The notes below the pieces were generated by a model. That model was not told the origin of the DNA, ran no database searches, and saw only the letters and a program-made list of their open reading frames with translations. A stretch of DNA of 64,000 nt, taken from contig BK006936.2 of the NCBI GenBank assembly GCA_000146045.2, forward strand, positions 96,001 through 160,000, in the 5' to 3' direction. This document shows, piece by piece, positions 16,801 to 50,885 of this stretch (its first letter is position 1; every line of letters starts with the position of its first letter). This DNA is from TPA_inf: Saccharomyces (taxonomy: Eukaryota). The position numbers and the translations under genes are program-made.

Positions 16801-17427
16801 TCAATACAATTTCAAATCACCTGTTATTTGATCCAATACTGCTTTTGGAGCAGGTCCTAAACCCAATACGGTGGCACTTCCCGCAGCAATCTGTGTTCTA
16901 CCAGCATCATGAATAACTGCTGCATTCACCCCAAGTGATATAGCCTTCGCATACAACTCGTCCATTGTAAACTTATCTGGACATTTCAACGTTATTTTAG
17001 CCTGTCCAGCATTTAGCCATCTTTGTGTCATAATTGGGTTGTATGAAGCACGCGCGGGGTTTGTAGCAATATGTCTAAAACATGACAATGCTGCGTGACA
17101 GCATTGTGCCGCTATTTTGCCCTTTGTCATGCCAAGATCTTGACGAATCACCAATGCCATCCTAACTTCTCCAGGTATATCATTCAATGAAGTGGACTCA
17201 ATATCTTCGTCCTCATCGCTCTCATCTTCGCTTTCACTTTCCTCCTCATCAGTGTCATTGTGTAGCTTTCCTTCCTTCATTTCTTTAGAACGCAGTAAAG
17301 TAGCTGAGGATTTCTTAGTTGATGATGCGTTCGACGTACCCAACTGGTAACCCACGGCAAAGGAGATTGCGGTGAAAGTAGCCCATAAAGCTATGGTGTA
17401 ATTCGAAGAAACTGTCATCTTTTCCAT
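16801..17427 (-). CDS. PTH2: Peptidyl-tRNA hydrolase 2 (PTH2 family), 208 aa, with an N-terminal TM anchor.
   Basis: PTH2 domain sequence (LVIRQDLGMTKGKIAAQCCHAAL...). Hydrophobic N-terminus. Confidence 0.93.
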   Translation of the reverse strand: MEKMTVSSNYTIALWATFTAISFAVGYQLGTSNASSTKKSSATLLRSKEMKEGKLHNDTDEEESESEDESDEDEDIESTSLNDIPGEVRMALVIRQDLGMTKGKIAAQCCHAALSCFRHIATNPARASYNPIMTQRWLNAGQAKITLKCPDKFTMDELYAKAISLGVNAAVIHDAGRTQIAAGSATVLGLGPAPKAVLDQITGDLKLY

Positions 17428-19572: not shown

Positions 19573-20829
19573 TTACTCTCCAAATATCTTACAGGTCGTC
19601 TTCCACGTGGTATCTATCAAAGTAGCCAGATCCACGTCCTTGACTTCCGATACGACAATTGCTACTTGTTCCATATTACAAGGCTCATTACGGCCCTTGA
19701 CCATGTAAAGTTCTTCTGCATTCAACTTGTCAGCGAGCTTATTTTTCTTAACGGACTTGAATGCAGGGTATTCGAAATCCCTAACCTCCTGGTATTTGGC
19801 TAAGTACTGGAAAGATGCATGCGTTCTTTTAATCTCACACCACGGAGCATCTGTCTCTAATAACAACCTTTCTGTTGGTATTTGCTTTACAACAGCTAGA
19901 TTTTCCTCGGTTCTCAACGAGCAACCGTTTACTCCTATGAAGATGTTGGGTGATAAGTTCAGTAATTTCTGCAAATCTATCGCAGAACCAGTGAATGAAT
20001 GGACCACTAGTTTTCTATCTGGATGAAATTTGTAAAACCCGCTAGACGACGATGCACCTAACTTTTGTAGCTGAAAGGTATCCCTCTCATCAGTGAACCC
20101 GGCAATAAATCTTTCCAATATTTGAACAAAATCGTCACATGCGCTTCTCATATGCAGAAACAATGGATAGCTGCTGAGTTTATCGTTCAAACAACTTATT
20201 TTCAGTTGCTCTTCAAAAAAAACCTTTTGCATCTCTTTAGAACTATAGTGAAATCTGTCGTAGTCCAACCCGATCTCACCAATTGACCTGAAACTTGTAT
20301 CATGAGGTTTTGCTTGCTGATTCATCAAATCATAAAGCTCTTTCAGTTTACCCTGTGCAAAAGATGGATTACTAATAACTTTAGCATATAGAGACTCATT
20401 ATATGCTTCATCCATGGAAGGGTTATCAATAGAAGCGCTAGCCTTGTCCCCTTGACTAGCATCCGCAAACTCGTTAACGCAACATGGGTGAACACCTATT
20501 GTGTGATACAGCTTTAACGGGCTAAGATCTTTGACGCTGCTTACCAACTCAATGGCACTTTGAGACTCCGCTATGGATGATCCTGTAACAAGGGCATTTT
20601 TCACGTGCCTCTGAGCAGCACGCTCTAATAATTTTACATAATCTGCTGGATGGTACTGCTTACCATTGTAAATACCGTGAAACATAGGATCTGTCAGATT
20701 CAATCCAATATCATAGTATTTCAGCGGAGAATCCGTGGCAGTTGATGTCATGCTATAATATTGTGTCAAAATTGGTTTCCAGAGCCTAGAACAACTTTTG
20801 TTCGAGGATTTCAATAAGATGCCCCACAT
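19573..20829 (-). CDS. YBL055C: TatD-family Mg-dependent DNase, 418 aa. The first ATG (20829-20827) is at ORF-track codon 10.
   Basis: TatD hydrolase fold motifs (histidine-containing IGEIGLD...). The length matches when started at the first ATG. Confidence 0.85.
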   Translation of the reverse strand: MWGILLKSSNKSCSRLWKPILTQYYSMTSTATDSPLKYYDIGLNLTDPMFHGIYNGKQYHPADYVKLLERAAQRHVKNALVTGSSIAESQSAIELVSSVKDLSPLKLYHTIGVHPCCVNEFADASQGDKASASIDNPSMDEAYNESLYAKVISNPSFAQGKLKELYDLMNQQAKPHDTSFRSIGEIGLDYDRFHYSSKEMQKVFFEEQLKISCLNDKLSSYPLFLHMRSACDDFVQILERFIAGFTDERDTFQLQKLGASSSSGFYKFHPDRKLVVHSFTGSAIDLQKLLNLSPNIFIGVNGCSLRTEENLAVVKQIPTERLLLETDAPWCEIKRTHASFQYLAKYQEVRDFEYPAFKSVKKNKLADKLNAEELYMVKGRNEPCNMEQVAIVVSEVKDVDLATLIDTTWKTTCKIFGE

Positions 20830-21292
20830 ATAACTATAACAGTACTGGCGCCTCAAAAAAATGCCTTGGCAGCGAAAGTGTCCACCTTTAGTTGTCCATT
20901 GCTACCAGGACATCACCACTGGGCCCTTCCAGCATGCTGGAAAGATTGTTCTTAGAAGAGTGCTGTTCTAAGTAACCCGGCGTTAGTAGGGGCTAAGCCT
21001 TCTAGAAGGCCGGAAAAGGCTCAGAAATGCCTGCAGTGCAAAGCTTTTCAGGAACGTTACTAGCGCAAGTCTTCTGGCTGCTGTTTAGCAACCTCTTTGC
21101 AGGTATTTCGCAGCGGGATTTCGCAGGTGTCTTGCCTAGCGTATCAACACTTAGTAGCAGTTAGGTTCTAAAGTTAAACTCCACTTCCGTTCTTCTTCGA
21201 GTTCCTTTTTGAGCGGTTTGGCCTATCTTGTCTCATCATCTTGTTAGTGTGCGACGTTATCTGTGGGTGAGAGAGGCTATTTTTGGTCCGGT

Positions 21293-21380
21293 GAAAAAAA
21301 AATTTTTTCTCTGCTGAGAGCTGAAATTTGAAAATTGAGATGAGATGCGATGCGATGAGATGCGAGACCAATGCGATGAG
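21293..21380. promoter_or_regulatory. RRPE (AAAAATTTT, about 21296..21308) plus a cluster of PAC motifs (GCGATGAG at about 21352..21359 and 21373..21380, with two degenerate copies) about 210-290 bp upstream of the TOD6 ATG.
   Basis: Read directly from the sequence. PAC = GCGATGAG(CT) and RRPE = TGAAAAATTTT are the signature elements of the ribosome-biogenesis regulon. Confidence 0.55.
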
Positions 21381-21588
21381 ACACTTTTCTACTTCCTTAC
21401 ACAGAAGTCGTGTATAGTTTTTGTACGTTGATATTAATAAAGGCTTTTCATATCATTTTGTTTTCAGGTAAACAAATCTGGCAAATCTCCACTGCTTGAG
21501 TCATTAAAACTACTCACTCAAGAAGGCATATACACGACAGTGGGTAGAGAAAAGAATATATCACTGTTCTTATTGAAGTTCCCTCGCG

Positions 21589-23166
21589 ATGACGTTGCCG
21601 AAACTCAGTAGCGTTTCTGTTTCATCAGGACATGTTAGTGCCAACTCACATGGTTTCTCAATACTAAGCAAACACCCTCACCCAAATAATCTTGTCCATT
21701 CCCACTCACTTTCTCACACAAATGCGAAGAGCCACCTGCCTATCAGTAGCACTAGCACTAAAGAGAACAGCACGAACAAGGAGGAGGCGGAATCACTCAA
21801 AAAAAACAACCCCTCTTCTTGGGACCCTAGTGATGATATCAAGCTCCGCCACCTGAAAGAGATCAAGAACTTGGGCTGGAAGGAGATTGCACATCATTTC
21901 CCAAATAGAACTCCTAACGCTTGTCAATTCAGATGGAGGAGACTGAAATCAGGCAACTTAAAGTCTAACAAGACCGCAGTTATTGACATCAATAAGCTAT
22001 TCGGCGTGTATGCGACTGGTGATGCTACCCCATCCGCGGGTACTCCGTCTGCGGAAGAAGCCGTAAAAGAGGAAGCTGTTGAGGATGAAGATATTACTGC
22101 AGGTTCTAGTGCTATCGAGGATTCTCCACCGGATTTCAAGCCATTAGTTAAGCCTAAATACATGGACAGAAAACTGATAACTCAAAGATCTACATCAACA
22201 TTTTCGGACCATGAGCCACAACACACGAAACCAAGGAAACTGTTTGTTAAGCCAAGGTCCTTCTCTCATTCTATAACAACCAACACGCCTAATGTAAAGA
22301 CTGCTCAGCAGACAAATCTAAGCCTTTATAACACTACTTCAGCAAAGACAAATAAAGCTGTTAATTCCAATGATTATGAGAATATTGGTCTTGTGCCTAA
22401 AATTATTATCAGGTCTAGAAGGAACTCCTTTATTCCTTCAACTCAAATCCCTCATTCAACGACGAAGACTAGGAAAAACTCGCATTCCGTAATTTCTTCT
22501 AGAAGATCATCTTTTAACATGATGCATTCAAGAAGATCATCCTTCAACTCTCACGCTCCTACGGAGCCTATTTCTAGAAGAGCTTCCTTGGTAGTTAGCC
22601 CGTATATGTCACCCAGAAGGTTATCTACATCGCAATCCGTTCATTATCATCCACAGCACCAATACTATCTTAACCCCATAGCGTCTCCCAACTGCAAGAC
22701 AGACCACGCAAATGACAAAATCACGCACACGAGGACTTTCTTAGATATGCAAAAATTCGCTAATAAACACCCGTGGTCTAGAGAAGATGATGAAGTGCTA
22801 CTTAACAATACGAAGGACAAACAAAACCATTTGTCGCCGCTAGAAATTTCTATTGTTCTGCCTAATAATAGATCCGAGTTGGAAATCCAACAAAGAATGG
22901 ATTATTTAAAGAGAAAAGGACGTGTAAGTGGTTTTCATACAAATGAAGGATGCAAAGACGAGGAGGAGGAGGATGACATTGACCCACTGCACAAGGAGAA
23001 TGGCATTAACACGCCATCGCAGCAATCGCAAAATTACGGTATGTTAGAGGCTAAACATGATAATCCAAAGTCTAGTGAGCTTTCTTCTATGACCAGCGCA
23101 AATGACATACGCAATGAGCAAGATGAACTTCCAGGTATAAATTCTATCTTTAAAAATATATTTTAA
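21589..23166 (+). CDS. TOD6: Myb/SANT-domain PAC-motif-binding transcriptional repressor, 525 aa.
   Basis: Single Myb-like repeat (WDPSDDIKLRHLKEIKNLGWKEIAHHFPNRTPNACQFRWRRL). S/T/N-rich low-complexity flanks. Confidence 0.92.
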   Translation: MTLPKLSSVSVSSGHVSANSHGFSILSKHPHPNNLVHSHSLSHTNAKSHLPISSTSTKENSTNKEEAESLKKNNPSSWDPSDDIKLRHLKEIKNLGWKEIAHHFPNRTPNACQFRWRRLKSGNLKSNKTAVIDINKLFGVYATGDATPSAGTPSAEEAVKEEAVEDEDITAGSSAIEDSPPDFKPLVKPKYMDRKLITQRSTSTFSDHEPQHTKPRKLFVKPRSFSHSITTNTPNVKTAQQTNLSLYNTTSAKTNKAVNSNDYENIGLVPKIIIRSRRNSFIPSTQIPHSTTKTRKNSHSVISSRRSSFNMMHSRRSSFNSHAPTEPISRRASLVVSPYMSPRRLSTSQSVHYHPQHQYYLNPIASPNCKTDHANDKITHTRTFLDMQKFANKHPWSREDDEVLLNNTKDKQNHLSPLEISIVLPNNRSELEIQQRMDYLKRKGRVSGFHTNEGCKDEEEEDDIDPLHKENGINTPSQQSQNYGMLEAKHDNPKSSELSSMTSANDIRNEQDELPGINSIFKNIF

Positions 23167-42340: not shown

Positions 42341-44260
42341 TTAGATATATCGTATCTTTTCATAGCCAGTGGAAACGCCGCCATATTCTTCAAAAGCTTC
42401 TCTTTCAGTTCCGAATTCTTCTACTTCGACCCACTCTTCGAGCCATTTACGGTCAGTTATCTTGGCATCGCCTGGAATACCCTTAATTGGGTAAAAATAC
42501 ACTAAAATGCAGTAACTCAATGCTGCAAGGAGATAACCAACGAAATAGTTTAGGTAGTAAACTTTCATAGCGCCAATAGGCACAGAAACTCCCACTGAAC
42601 CTAAAAAGCCTGCAAAATTAGGAGCAATACCAAATATATAAGCTACCACCGCCCTCCAGTTCGTACCATATTTATTGTACATGTAGTACGATCCTGGCTT
42701 GTCGGTGTAGCAATGGAAAATATTAACGTAACCCTTTCTGACAATGAAGTAATCGGCTGATATTACACCCGCAATAGCACTTAAGAAAACTGCATATGCC
42801 GCTAGTGCCGTAGTAAACTTTGACGATGATGATAATAAATCCCAGGGGCAAATCGCCAACGATATTAGAGCACAAATATAAGAACCGCGTCTGATATTGA
42901 TGAATTTAGGCAATAATGCAGTCAGATCGGTACCTGCAGGGATCGAGTTACCAGACAAGTTGGCACCCAGCTGGTCAAACGCAAAAATGAAAGATATTAA
43001 GAATACACCGGCTCTGTTCCCCGAAGTATAGTTATCCAAGTACCTGTTCAGAATGTCTAGGGGACTCCAATAATTTACTCCGTACAATGTATAAGCTGCG
43101 GAGACAGACAATATTCCGATTAAGGAAATAATGGCATAGCAGACGGGTAGCGCAATCAATTGCGAGTAAACAGATGACTTGTAGGTCTTACCGAATCTAG
43201 TGAAGTCAGGAGCGTTTAGGATTAAAGTAGAGAAGTTATCCAGAGCACTCATAATAGCTCTAATGACAGACCATGCTAAAACCGTCTTGCTGATTGCGCC
43301 ACCATTGTCATTTAGGGAACCCAATGCCAAATGACCTTTGGCCTTACAAAGAGTCCAAATCAAAAAACCGAAGGCCGCAAATGGAGTGATGGCGGATTTG
43401 AGTGCAAATATATGACGCAATTTGTCAGGTGGAAACCATAGGAACGGTAAACATGCGACCCAGAAGACCATGAAGCACATGAACTCGAAGTTCGTCAAAT
43501 TGGGGTTCTTTATGGTGTCTTTGATTCTAGTATTCAAATTAGTACCGAAGATAGCCTTTAGCATCAACTGAACACATTGACTACCGATATAAGCCAAAGT
43601 AGAATTCCAGACACATGCCATGACGACACGGTTGATGACAATCCAGATGGAGAAGTAGATACCAAATGATACTCTTGAGGAAATGGGGAAAGAGATATGG
43701 TAATTGTTCCCCACTTTGGAACCCAGTATCAAGAAAAATGCGACAAACGTGTATCCAACCCAAATACAGATCCAAGTCTGCCACCAGTTAAGCCCTAACT
43801 GTAGCCCAGTGGCTGAGATTTGCCATGTATTGACGTTAAAGGACCCAGAAATCCAAAAGAAAATGTACTGCTTCCATGTCCACGTTCTTCTTTTTGCCTC
43901 CACGGGCCGCAGATCTGTGTTGTACAAGTACGTCGAACGGAGGGACTCCTGTAAATCTTTAAATGTCCTAATTGGATTTTCGGGCTTATGATCGGCCAAA
44001 TCGGTAGAGTCATTCTTAACCTCAAAAAACTCGACAACTCTTTGCAGCCAAGACACCTTTTCGTCATCCTGAGCAATGGTTATATTGTTTTCTGAATCGG
44101 TATCTTTTTTTTCAATGACATTAGCATCAATCTTAGAAGTAATTTTAGTCGCATCACCCATCTCGGACTCTTTCGTGATTTCTTCGTAATCCTCCGTCGG
44201 TATAGTGTCGTCCTTCATTGTTTTTGAAGAATTATCGAATCCAGAATCAGATACCGGCAT
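42341..44260 (-). CDS. FUI1: Uridine permease (NCS1/Fur family, 12 TM), 639 aa.
   Basis: NCS1 transporter family with multiple TM helices and a hydrophilic N-terminal tail. Confidence 0.93.
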   Translation of the reverse strand: MPVSDSGFDNSSKTMKDDTIPTEDYEEITKESEMGDATKITSKIDANVIEKKDTDSENNITIAQDDEKVSWLQRVVEFFEVKNDSTDLADHKPENPIRTFKDLQESLRSTYLYNTDLRPVEAKRRTWTWKQYIFFWISGSFNVNTWQISATGLQLGLNWWQTWICIWVGYTFVAFFLILGSKVGNNYHISFPISSRVSFGIYFSIWIVINRVVMACVWNSTLAYIGSQCVQLMLKAIFGTNLNTRIKDTIKNPNLTNFEFMCFMVFWVACLPFLWFPPDKLRHIFALKSAITPFAAFGFLIWTLCKAKGHLALGSLNDNGGAISKTVLAWSVIRAIMSALDNFSTLILNAPDFTRFGKTYKSSVYSQLIALPVCYAIISLIGILSVSAAYTLYGVNYWSPLDILNRYLDNYTSGNRAGVFLISFIFAFDQLGANLSGNSIPAGTDLTALLPKFINIRRGSYICALISLAICPWDLLSSSSKFTTALAAYAVFLSAIAGVISADYFIVRKGYVNIFHCYTDKPGSYYMYNKYGTNWRAVVAYIFGIAPNFAGFLGSVGVSVPIGAMKVYYLNYFVGYLLAALSYCILVYFYPIKGIPGDAKITDRKWLEEWVEVEEFGTEREAFEEYGGVSTGYEKIRYI

Positions 44261-45159
44261 TTTCTCTTATATAGAATTAATGAATGAGAGGACTAGTTAC
44301 CGCCTTTTATTTCCGCAATGTGCTGCAAAGTAAAGCAAAGCTGTCCAATACTATGTTTTAAATTTTACAAGAAGGTCGAAGCAATACTACTGTTATATAA
44401 AAGATAGGATAGCATGTCATCGAGTAATTGAGCAAGAGAGGAAATGAAAAACTTTTCCGTTGGAGAATTGATCAAAAATTTTCAAAAATACGACATGTCC
44501 CTGTGTTGTCCAGGCTGACACAATAGTTTCAGTAGCGAGAACCGCCAAGTTTTATTGCAGCATCCTTTAATGGCAAAGATGGCGCGATAAGGACGAAACC
44601 GGCAAATCCCGAGCATCAACCACAGTGAACGCCGCGGAGAAACTCAAAGGCGAAAGGGGAGAAAAAAAGAAATTAATGGCACATACCGCTTTGTGGCATG
44701 GCTCAATCACATTTCTTTTTCTTCTTTCTGATCGCCCGCAGGAGAGGCAGCGCCGTTTGTGTCCCATCGCAAGGACAAACTAGCTAGGACATGAGACTTC
44801 TAAGCCGTTCAGTCGAAAGAGTTAGGGCATTAGTCTCTAAAGATAAGTGTGGGGGCTTGGTTGAGTCTTGATTTAAAAGCTTGGAGTAGGCATTTTACGA
44901 TCTATTTTCTCTCGAAATAAAGTAAAGGTATTGCTGCAAAGGAATTGCCGTAATATTTAAAACTTCTTGCTTAAGTGATGTAAAGGCAGTGAGGCGATAG
45001 CAATGTTTCGTAGAGCCTGTGACTAGTGAAGCATAGGCAATAAATTGTTTTTTTTTTCTGATTTTGTATTGCCGTCTCTGCGTCGCAGAGATTTGGTGTT
45101 CGTACGGAGCGATAATTGTTTTTATCTTTTCCAACTTAAAGGATCGAGGAAACTCAAAG

Positions 45160-45168: not shown

Positions 45169-45246
45169 AACAAGCGGTATAATACAAGGTGAACTGAGTT
45201 GGAAAGAGAGTAGCCAAGACTATTGAACTATAAAGTTAAACAAAAT

Positions 45247-45972
45247 ATGGCCACTATTGCATCAGAATACTCTTCGGAGGCGTCAAATACACCCATTGAA
45301 CATCAATTCAATCCTTACGGTGATAATGGTGGTACAATCCTGGGCATTGCAGGTGAAGATTTCGCAGTGTTAGCAGGCGATACAAGAAATATCACCGATT
45401 ACTCAATTAATTCTCGTTATGAACCCAAGGTTTTTGATTGTGGTGATAACATAGTCATGTCGGCGAATGGATTTGCAGCAGACGGCGACGCTTTAGTAAA
45501 AAGATTCAAAAATAGTGTAAAATGGTACCATTTCGACCACAACGACAAAAAACTATCTATAAACTCTGCAGCAAGGAACATTCAACATCTTCTGTACGGG
45601 AAGAGGTTTTTCCCTTACTACGTTCATACGATCATTGCGGGTCTTGACGAAGATGGTAAGGGCGCTGTCTATTCGTTCGACCCAGTTGGCTCCTACGAAA
45701 GAGAACAGTGTAGAGCAGGTGGTGCTGCGGCATCATTGATCATGCCATTTTTGGACAATCAGGTTAATTTCAAAAATCAATATGAGCCAGGTACAAACGG
45801 TAAAGTCAAAAAGCCTTTGAAATACTTGTCCGTGGAAGAAGTCATCAAACTGGTGAGAGACTCGTTCACTTCTGCTACAGAAAGACATATACAAGTGGGT
45901 GATGGGCTGGAAATCCTTATTGTCACCAAGGATGGTGTAAGGAAAGAATTTTATGAGCTAAAAAGAGATTAA
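45247..45972 (+). CDS. PRE7: 20S proteasome beta-6 subunit, 241 aa. First ATG at 45247.
   Basis: Proteasome beta-type fold (GTILGIAGEDFAVLAGDTR...). Non-catalytic beta subunit. Confidence 0.92.
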   Translation: MATIASEYSSEASNTPIEHQFNPYGDNGGTILGIAGEDFAVLAGDTRNITDYSINSRYEPKVFDCGDNIVMSANGFAADGDALVKRFKNSVKWYHFDHNDKKLSINSAARNIQHLLYGKRFFPYYVHTIIAGLDEDGKGAVYSFDPVGSYEREQCRAGGAAASLIMPFLDNQVNFKNQYEPGTNGKVKKPLKYLSVEEVIKLVRDSFTSATERHIQVGDGLEILIVTKDGVRKEFYELKRD

Positions 45973-49728: not shown

Positions 49729-49872
49729 TTTCTGTCTATAAGTTTCTTTTGTTCTATTGACCAATTCACTGAGAAACTGCCTGAAACTTTTTCGACCTTA
49801 GAATGGCAGAAAAATGGCAAATACTGTAAAATACTTAACATTTAACTAAATTTTATTCTATGCTTTTCCTCT

Positions 49873-49898
49873 CGATGAGATGAGCTGTGAAAAATTTT
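49873..49898. promoter_or_regulatory. PAC-like motifs (CGATGAG / GATGAGCT) immediately followed by a perfect RRPE (TGAAAAATTTT), about 150-170 bp upstream of the URA7 ATG.
   Basis: Read directly from the sequence. This is the typical PAC+RRPE arrangement of RiBi and nucleotide-biosynthesis promoters. Confidence 0.5.
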
Positions 49899-49899
49899 G

Positions 49900-49930
<31 letters not shown>
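49900..49930. repeat. Uninterrupted 31-bp poly(dA:dT) tract in the URA7/MRPL16 divergent promoter.
   Basis: Read directly from the sequence. Long homopolymeric dA:dT tracts exclude nucleosomes in yeast promoters. Confidence 0.9.

Positions 49931-49934
<4 letters not shown>

Positions 49935-50120: not shown

Positions 50121-50885
<765 letters not shown>

Follow-up and report, generated by a model that had tools for sequence, protein, structure and literature searches.

Dot6 and Tod6 repress PAC-containing genes via Rpd3L when TORC1, Sch9 or PKA is inactive, and a cluster of PAC motifs is found in front of TOD6 itself. The question raised by this locus is whether the gene encoding the repressor is controlled by its own product, is only co-regulated with the ribosome-biogenesis (RiBi) genes, or merely lies next to a cluster that serves its divergent neighbour, YBL055C. 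We analyzed the cluster in its 64-kb window (the whole stretch of Saccharomyces cerevisiae DNA under study, to which all coordinates below refer), in orthologous promoters and in published binding data.

The observation is confirmed: the cluster is real, strongly selected and of an ordinary kind, and the reading given in the original prediction is supported. In particular, autoregulation or co-regulation with the RiBi regulon, as suggested there, agrees with the RiBi promoter grammar, with conservation, with Dot6 and Tod6 occupancy in ChEC experiments and with Sfp1 dependence. We consider it likely that the module is a functional Dot6/Tod6-responsive control region of TOD6 of the RiBi type. 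A contribution of Tod6 itself large enough to make this true autoregulation is favoured as well, somewhat less firmly.

Organization of the TOD6-YBL055C intergenic region

The open reading frame at 21589-23166 (+) encodes 525 amino acids with a Myb-like DNA-binding domain (residues 77-121), and its translation matches Tod6p of S. cerevisiae S288C exactly; it is TOD6 (YBL054W). The divergent frame at 19573-20829 (-), 418 amino acids long from its first ATG, is YBL055C and encodes a TatD-family nuclease (TatD DNase). Both genes had been identified correctly in the original prediction. They share an intergenic region of 759 bp (20830-21588), whose TOD6-proximal half contains, in this order, TGAAAAAAAAATTTTTTC, TGAAATTTGAAAATT, GAGATGAGATGCGATGCGATGAGATGCG, an 8-bp gap and a second GCGATGAG.

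A motif scan of the S. cerevisiae intergenic region found no TATA, Abf1, Reb1, Rap1, Tbf1, Cbf1, MCB/SCB or Rpn4 motifs, and no tRNA was found in it. Two further candidates were rejected. The only Rfam match, considered as a possible non-coding RNA, is far below the threshold (E 0.91; 15 bits at a gathering score of 70), and a Gcn4-like TGAGTCA at 21497 was dropped, as it is missing from S. paradoxus.

All five other Saccharomyces species have the Reb1 consensus CGGGTAA approximately 590-620 bp upstream of TOD6 (positions 1530, 1881, 1904, 1913 and 1880 of loci L001, L002, L003, L004 and L005, respectively). The S. cerevisiae counterpart (window 20968-20982) reads TAAGTAA, and S. cerevisiae thus appears, judging from these sequences, to have lost this site.

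The PAC array

The central feature of the module is a period-5 array, GAGATGAGATGCGATGCGATGAGATGCG, at 21337-21364 (+), formed by five overlapping GATGMG units. The units stand head-to-tail, five of them over 21339-21364, and a sixth follows at 21375; TRF describes the array as a repeat of period 5 with 5.4 copies. The array contains the first exact PAC core, GCGATGAG (21352-21359, +), at -237 from the TOD6 ATG. The second exact core (21373-21380, +) is located at -216, inside the run TGCGATGAGACA, which is invariant in Saccharomyces. Membership in the PAC consensus is supported by these two 8-mers and by the longer 10-mer consensus GCGATGAGMT (Bosio 2017), whose sole exact match in the 64-kb window is found in the array, at 21352-21361. 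Of the twelve matches to this 10-mer with at most one mismatch in the window, four fall in the array, one being exact and three having one mismatch. The sequence and coordinates of the PAC cores, and the distances of both the cores and the RRPE core (-291, see below) from the TOD6 ATG, had been given correctly in the original prediction.

The two cores upstream of TOD6 are the only intergenic GCGATGAG sites in the window. A third copy, at 17212-17219 (-), is a coding look-alike and not a promoter element, as it lies in the coding frame 16801-17427 (-), in an acidic stretch. Two further GATGAG motifs are found near it (window 17200-17255), in a segment encoding a stretch rich in Asp, Glu and Ser. 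Three GCGATGAG per window is not a remarkable number, being reached in 10 of 100 shuffles. The clustering of PAC sites is significant, while the counts of single motifs are not: six GATGMG units are found within 45 bp, where 300 dinucleotide-preserving shuffles never gave more than three, and none of these shuffles produced two PAC cores within 30 bp.

RRPE-like elements and the RiBi promoter architecture

Upstream of the array lies the RRPE-like element TGAAAAAAAAATTTTTTC (21292-21309, +; A9T6), which combines the palindromic core AAAATTTT with a Stb3-type TGAAAA half-site. The core agrees with the Sfp1 ChEC motif gAAAATTTTc, and AAAAATTTTT, at 21298-21307 (-291 from the TOD6 ATG), occurs once in the window; by itself it is not significant, since 1.38 copies are expected in the window. 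This element had been described as a perfect RRPE, which holds for the AAAATTTT core and for the TGAAAA half-sites, but not for the strict 11-mer consensus TGAAAAWTTTY, which has no match at 21292-21309 even with one mismatch, because the A-run is nine nucleotides long (the site being TGA9T6C).

A second A/T-rich RRPE-like stretch, TGAAATTTGAAAATT, occupies 21322-21336 (+). Its TGAAAAT (21329-21335), with the TGAAAA match at 21329, is invariant in six Saccharomyces species and directly adjoins the PAC array; by its sequence, it is a candidate short-motif site for Stb3.

The distance of 50-80 bp between RRPE and PAC that was initially proposed is right when measured centre to centre to the exact cores (53 and 74 bp), but measured edge to edge the T-run and the array are only about 30 bp apart. 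The latter value may be compared with the published grammar of RiBi promoters, in which a general regulatory factor is followed after approximately 25 bp by an RRPE, after another 25 bp or so by PAC, and then by the start site, all without a TATA box (Bosio 2017). The RRPE-like element upstream of TOD6 is thus found close to where this grammar would place it, and it is conserved there: the A-run varies from 6 to 11 among the six species, while AAAATTTT is retained in all six.

In these respects the TOD6 promoter resembles canonical RiBi/RRB promoters (e.g. NSR1, DBP7, LTV1, NOP genes), which are TATA-less and have an RRPE approximately 25-30 bp upstream of PAC. An extended tandem form of PAC, GCGATGAGATGAG, is known from canonical promoters as well, and the factors are the same, that is, Dot6/Tod6, Stb3, Sfp1 and Rpd3L. 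Still, several features differ. Where one or two sites are usual, TOD6 has six GATGMG units with two exact cores; its RRPE is the expanded A9T6 form that fails the strict 11-mer; the S. cerevisiae promoter has no Abf1, Reb1 or Tbf1 site; and the gene encodes not a ribosome assembly factor but the protein that represses the regulon. Moreover, the array of this TATA-less promoter is located 209-250 bp from the ATG, compared to the typical 75-125 bp, so that the module is approximately 100-130 bp further away than usual, implying a long ATG-free leader.

Conservation of the module

The intergenic region of S. cerevisiae was aligned with those of S. paradoxus, S. kudriavzevii, S. mikatae, S. arboricola and S. 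eubayanus. Across the whole region, 34% of S. cerevisiae positions are invariant in this six-species alignment. The most conserved 45-bp stretch, with 87% invariant positions, starts at 21315 and spans TGAAAAT and the array through PAC core 1. The invariant runs of the module are TGAAAAT, TGAGATGAG and TGCGATGCGATGAG (both in the array), TGCGATGAGACA and TTTCTACTT. The spacer between the exact PAC cores has lost 11 bp in S. mikatae and 1 bp in S. arboricola, with both cores intact in both species; since these deletions spare the cores, selection acts on the PAC motifs themselves.

At larger distances, PAC sites were found in the TOD6 upstream regions of K. naganishii (three copies of GCGATGAG) and Monosporozyma servazzii (one copy, in an inverted period-5 array with the reverse complement GCGATGCGATGCGATGAGATGAGATG), and upstream of the single gene of lineages that preceded the duplication: T. 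globosa (two copies), L. thermotolerans (one) and K. dobzhanskii (three). These promoters are too diverged to be aligned, and GCGATGAG is present in five of the five. PAC is therefore conserved as a discrete block in six Saccharomyces species and in all five distant TOD6-lineage or pre-duplication promoters examined. AAAATTTT, by comparison, is found among the five distant promoters only in T. globosa, being absent from the other four. Altogether, ten orthologous upstream regions contain 20 copies of GCGATGAG in 8.8 kb (2.27 per kb), compared to one copy in the remaining 57 kb of the same ten loci (0.017 per kb); the expectation from base composition is 0.011 per 750 bp, both strands considered.

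The M. servazzii array, CATCTCATCTCATCGCATCGCATCGC, is located at approximately 2376-2406 of locus L007, at -125 to -95 from the TOD6 ATG, in the orientation inverse to that in Saccharomyces. Hence it is the tandem architecture, beyond the 8-mer, that recurs in this species, by either retention or convergence.

Occupancy and regulation of the TOD6 promoter

The check proposed along with the original prediction, occupancy of this promoter by Dot6 and Tod6, could be made in published ChEC-seq data, where the top 40 promoter targets are given for each pair of paralogues (Gera 2022, eLife, PMC9000951, Supplementary file 2). In the table for Dot6 and Tod6, YBL054W/YBL055C is listed third, with z 8.48 for Dot6 and z 3.66 for Tod6 (PMC9000951). 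The signal was recorded in rich medium, has whole-promoter resolution and is common to TOD6 and YBL055C, and the Tod6 value barely exceeds the threshold used in the paper (at most 3.5). As for specificity, other top entries of the Dot6/Tod6 table (ZRT1, FKS1, MTH1, HXT6, ZEO1, YBL029C-A, RHO5) recur in the lists of other factors, and TOD6 is listed in just 3 of the 30 tables (PMC9000951). Two features expected of an autoregulatory loop are thus observed, the factor's own motif in its own promoter and occupancy of that promoter by the factor, the latter just over the threshold.

Activation has been studied as well. Sfp1 binds gAAAATTTTc, an RRPE-like motif, and TOD6 was described as a novel Sfp1-dependent 'RiBi-like' target, with a 'possible feedback' mentioned (Albert 2019, PMC6411004); Sfp1 dependence is thus provided by the literature at the level of the gene. 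The motifs, the RiBi-like behaviour, the Sfp1 dependence and the Dot6/Tod6 occupancy of the TOD6 promoter are all known; Gera 2022 in effect already covers binding of the promoter by its own product and by the paralogue, and Albert 2019 raised the idea of feedback. No paper explicitly dissecting the TOD6 PAC array was found, though an earlier explicit description is quite possible, key primary papers being outside the search. In the literature searched there was no experiment in which the TOD6 PAC sites were mutated or the output of the TOD6 promoter was read in dot6/tod6 mutants, and neither the TOD6 promoter nor TOD6 mRNA is discussed in a paper from the Gasch laboratory (EMBO J 2026).

The circuit resembles other cases in which paralogues bind their own and each other's promoters (Gera 2022, Figure 1E; e.g. 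Mig2/Mig3 and Nrg1/Nrg2), as Tod6 and Dot6 alike occupy the TOD6 promoter in the ChEC-seq data from which those circuits were defined. The Dot6/Tod6 pair differs from these cases by its asymmetry: the examined DOT6 promoters have neither GCGATGAG nor RRPE, and the DOT6 promoter of S. cerevisiae is instead bound by Msn2/Msn4.

The stronger signal of Dot6 leaves room for co-regulation only, where TOD6 would be controlled by Dot6, Stb3 and Sfp1, and Tod6 would be negligible at its own promoter, with no real autoregulatory loop. Indeed, the Dot6 signal (z 8.48) far exceeds that of Tod6 (z 3.66), and either protein could occupy the array, their binding preferences being near-identical (Pearson r 0.83; Gera 2022, PMC9000951). 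Nevertheless, the Tod6 score is still above the significance threshold of the paper, and the pre-duplication gene, present in a single copy, has PAC in its own promoter, where repression is autoregulation by definition. On this balance we regard a circuit without a Tod6 contribution as rather unlikely, and retain the reading in which Tod6 acts on its own gene together with Dot6.

The presumed transcription start region and the gene served by the module

The 208 nt that separate the last PAC core from the TOD6 start codon (21381-21588, +) are free of ATG, where 3.5 ATG triplets are expected in S. cerevisiae. Summed over the six species, this stretch contains two ATGs compared to approximately 21.6 expected, both being at most about 35 nt from the array. 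Going by its sequence, the stretch would be a long 5' leader, with the start site just after the array. It fits a start site directly downstream of PAC, and in TATA-less promoters PAC has been classed with the motifs found close to the start site (Erb and van Nimwegen 2011, PMC3170328). Directly 3' of PAC core 2 there is another conserved block, ACACTTTTCTACTTCCTT (21381-21398, +), holding the invariant TTTCTACTT (21386-21394), which may represent the core promoter or the region of transcription start.

These features bear on the possibility that the array is chiefly an activating core-promoter element, a 'proximal promoter motif' positioning the pre-initiation complex, perhaps through an activator yet to be named. 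The start-site-proximal location of PAC in TATA-less promoters, described with the remark that binding of PAC by any activator in rich conditions is uncertain (PMC3170328), would agree with it, and so would the fact that the TOD6 promoter has neither a TATA box nor a site for a general regulatory factor. However, Dot6 and Tod6, the proteins known to bind PAC, repress via Rpd3L, and disruption of a PAC motif at an eQTL is reported to correlate with increased expression. A core-promoter role is, besides, compatible with that of a repressor site and does not exclude it. As the chief function of the array we consider it quite unlikely, and repression by Dot6 and Tod6 remains the preferred function.

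The intergenic region being common to two genes, the cluster might also mainly serve YBL055C, as the original prediction had allowed, or both genes equally as a bidirectional element. The ChEC promoter scores assigned to the two genes are near-identical (8.48 and 8.46), and the intergenic region of T. globosa measures just 455 bp, with PAC 120-245 bp from the TatD ATG. Yet the PAC sites of S. cerevisiae are 209-250 bp away from the TOD6 ATG as against 508-551 bp from the YBL055C ATG (523 bp to PAC core 1), and YBL055C has a conserved block of its own (20986-21093), which begins and ends 140-260 bp from its ATG. The PAC sites of K. naganishii and M. servazzii are much closer to TOD6, and L. thermotolerans has PAC at -133 even though no TatD gene is present in the 2.5 kb fetched upstream. 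Finally, the order of RRPE, PAC and ATG-free leader reads toward TOD6. The distances, the separate block and the PAC site of L. thermotolerans make this alternative very unlikely, and TOD6 is the main target of the PAC/RRPE module, a minor bidirectional effect being possible.

The separate module near YBL055C (20986-21093) comprises AGGGG (20988), the palindrome AAGCCTTCTAGAAG (20995-21008), TAGCGCA (21061) and GTTTAGCAACC (21083). Since it is distinct from the PAC/RRPE module, the intergenic region is bipartite. AAGCCTTCTAGAAG is an invariant 14-bp palindrome with a heat-shock-element-like core, TTCTAGAA. By the binding motifs of Rgm1 and Stp3, AGGGG and TAGCGCA could be sites for these factors. 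Both factors have the TOD6/YBL055C promoter among their top targets (Rgm1 z 19, Stp3 z 16; Gera 2022, PMC9000951).

A neutral pentanucleotide microsatellite, or a short upstream ORF, of no regulatory meaning can practically be dismissed as an account of the array: although TRF detects a period-5 repeat and a 25-codon ORF starts within the array on the + strand, in six species the array stays invariant between diverging flanks, GCGATGAG recurs in the unalignable promoters of five distant genera, the shuffles together with conservation rule out an origin by chance or as a microsatellite, and the ORF is rejected because the 11-bp deletion of S. mikatae and the 1-bp deletion of S. arboricola break its frame and spare the PAC cores.

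Proposed regulatory circuit

In the circuit that we infer, the A/T-rich RRPE-like element and a poly(dA) tract would keep the TATA-less promoter open during growth, and the same A/T-rich element would recruit Sfp1, the TORC1-dependent activator on which TOD6 has been shown to depend. TOD6 mRNA would then be produced in step with the RiBi regulon, the Tod6 protein being kept inactive by Sch9/PKA phosphorylation. When TORC1/PKA activity falls, dephosphorylated Dot6 and Tod6 would bind the GATGMG/GCGATGAG array upstream of the presumed start site, with Stb3 probably present on the adjoining TGAAAA sites too. By recruitment of the Rpd3L deacetylase, TOD6 would be switched off together with its targets. 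The expected outcome is negative autoregulation by Tod6 combined with cross-repression by Dot6. Synthesis of the repressor would stop during degradation of the protein, which would make repression self-limiting, and the standing pool of repressor would scale with growth.

The brake on ribosome biogenesis would, in such a circuit, be wired as a member of the regulon under its own repression. This predicts that the supply of the repressor tracks the growth rate and that repression limits itself, in agreement with the published rapid degradation of the Dot6 and Tod6 proteins in starvation. The amounts of DOT6 and TOD6 mRNA differ less than 2-fold between steady-state glycerol and glucose (Kunkel 2019); given this small difference at steady state, control through the module is likely transient.

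Divergence of the TOD6 and DOT6 promoters

Neither GCGATGAG nor AAAATTTT is present in the two DOT6 promoters examined, the S. paradoxus-type one (with the PTC2-DOT6-SBH1 gene order) and that of K. naganishii. The upstream region of S. paradoxus-type DOT6 (L008, 1756-2500) is unusually G+C-rich and has CCCCT/AGGGG elements at -569, -383 and -22, which fit the published control of DOT6 by Msn2/4. A single CGATGAG at -55 is a residual PAC-like site near the ATG of this promoter. YBL054W was reportedly mentioned along with ribosome biogenesis by Tirosh and Barkai in 2007, where the regulatory divergence of the paralogues may also be described. Msn2 and Msn4 are known to bind the DOT6 promoter and to sustain DOT6 mRNA in stress, and their ChEC scores there are 6.3 and 5.7, respectively (Gera 2022, PMC9000951).

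A tentative evolutionary reading, which we rate as plausible and somewhat short of probable, is that the PAC loop is ancestral and was kept after the whole-genome duplication by TOD6 alone, which would also have retained the ancestral gene order PP2C-TatD-TOD6-SAS3, while DOT6 lost PAC and RRPE and gained control by Msn2/Msn4, with a resulting division of labour. If so, Tod6 would be a growth-coupled, self-limiting repressor and Dot6 a stress-sustained one, and this division would explain why both copies were retained despite having the same binding sites. What this analysis may add to the literature is solely the asymmetry seen between TOD6 and DOT6 promoters in different species, and the addition would be modest.

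Other PAC and RRPE matches in the window

Matches to the same motifs were noted elsewhere in the window. An exact RRPE 11-mer, TGAAAATTTTT (-, at 44474), lies together with two near matches at 44445-44484, in the intergenic region that separates ORF 42341-44260 (-) from ORF 45223-45972 (+); no PAC core is close to them.

A second compact module containing both PAC and RRPE is located at 49872-49931, between an ORF ending at 49764 (-) and one starting at 50142 (+), presumably URA7 and MRPL16. It consists of CGATGAGATGAG, 6 bp, an exact TGAAAAATTTT and then poly(dA) of approximately 33 residues. Like the TOD6 module, it combines PAC and RRPE with a long poly(dA), and it is typical of compact RiBi-type modules. 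It is, however, far shorter than the TOD6 module and lacks an exact GCGATGAG core, and its PAC and RRPE almost abut each other.
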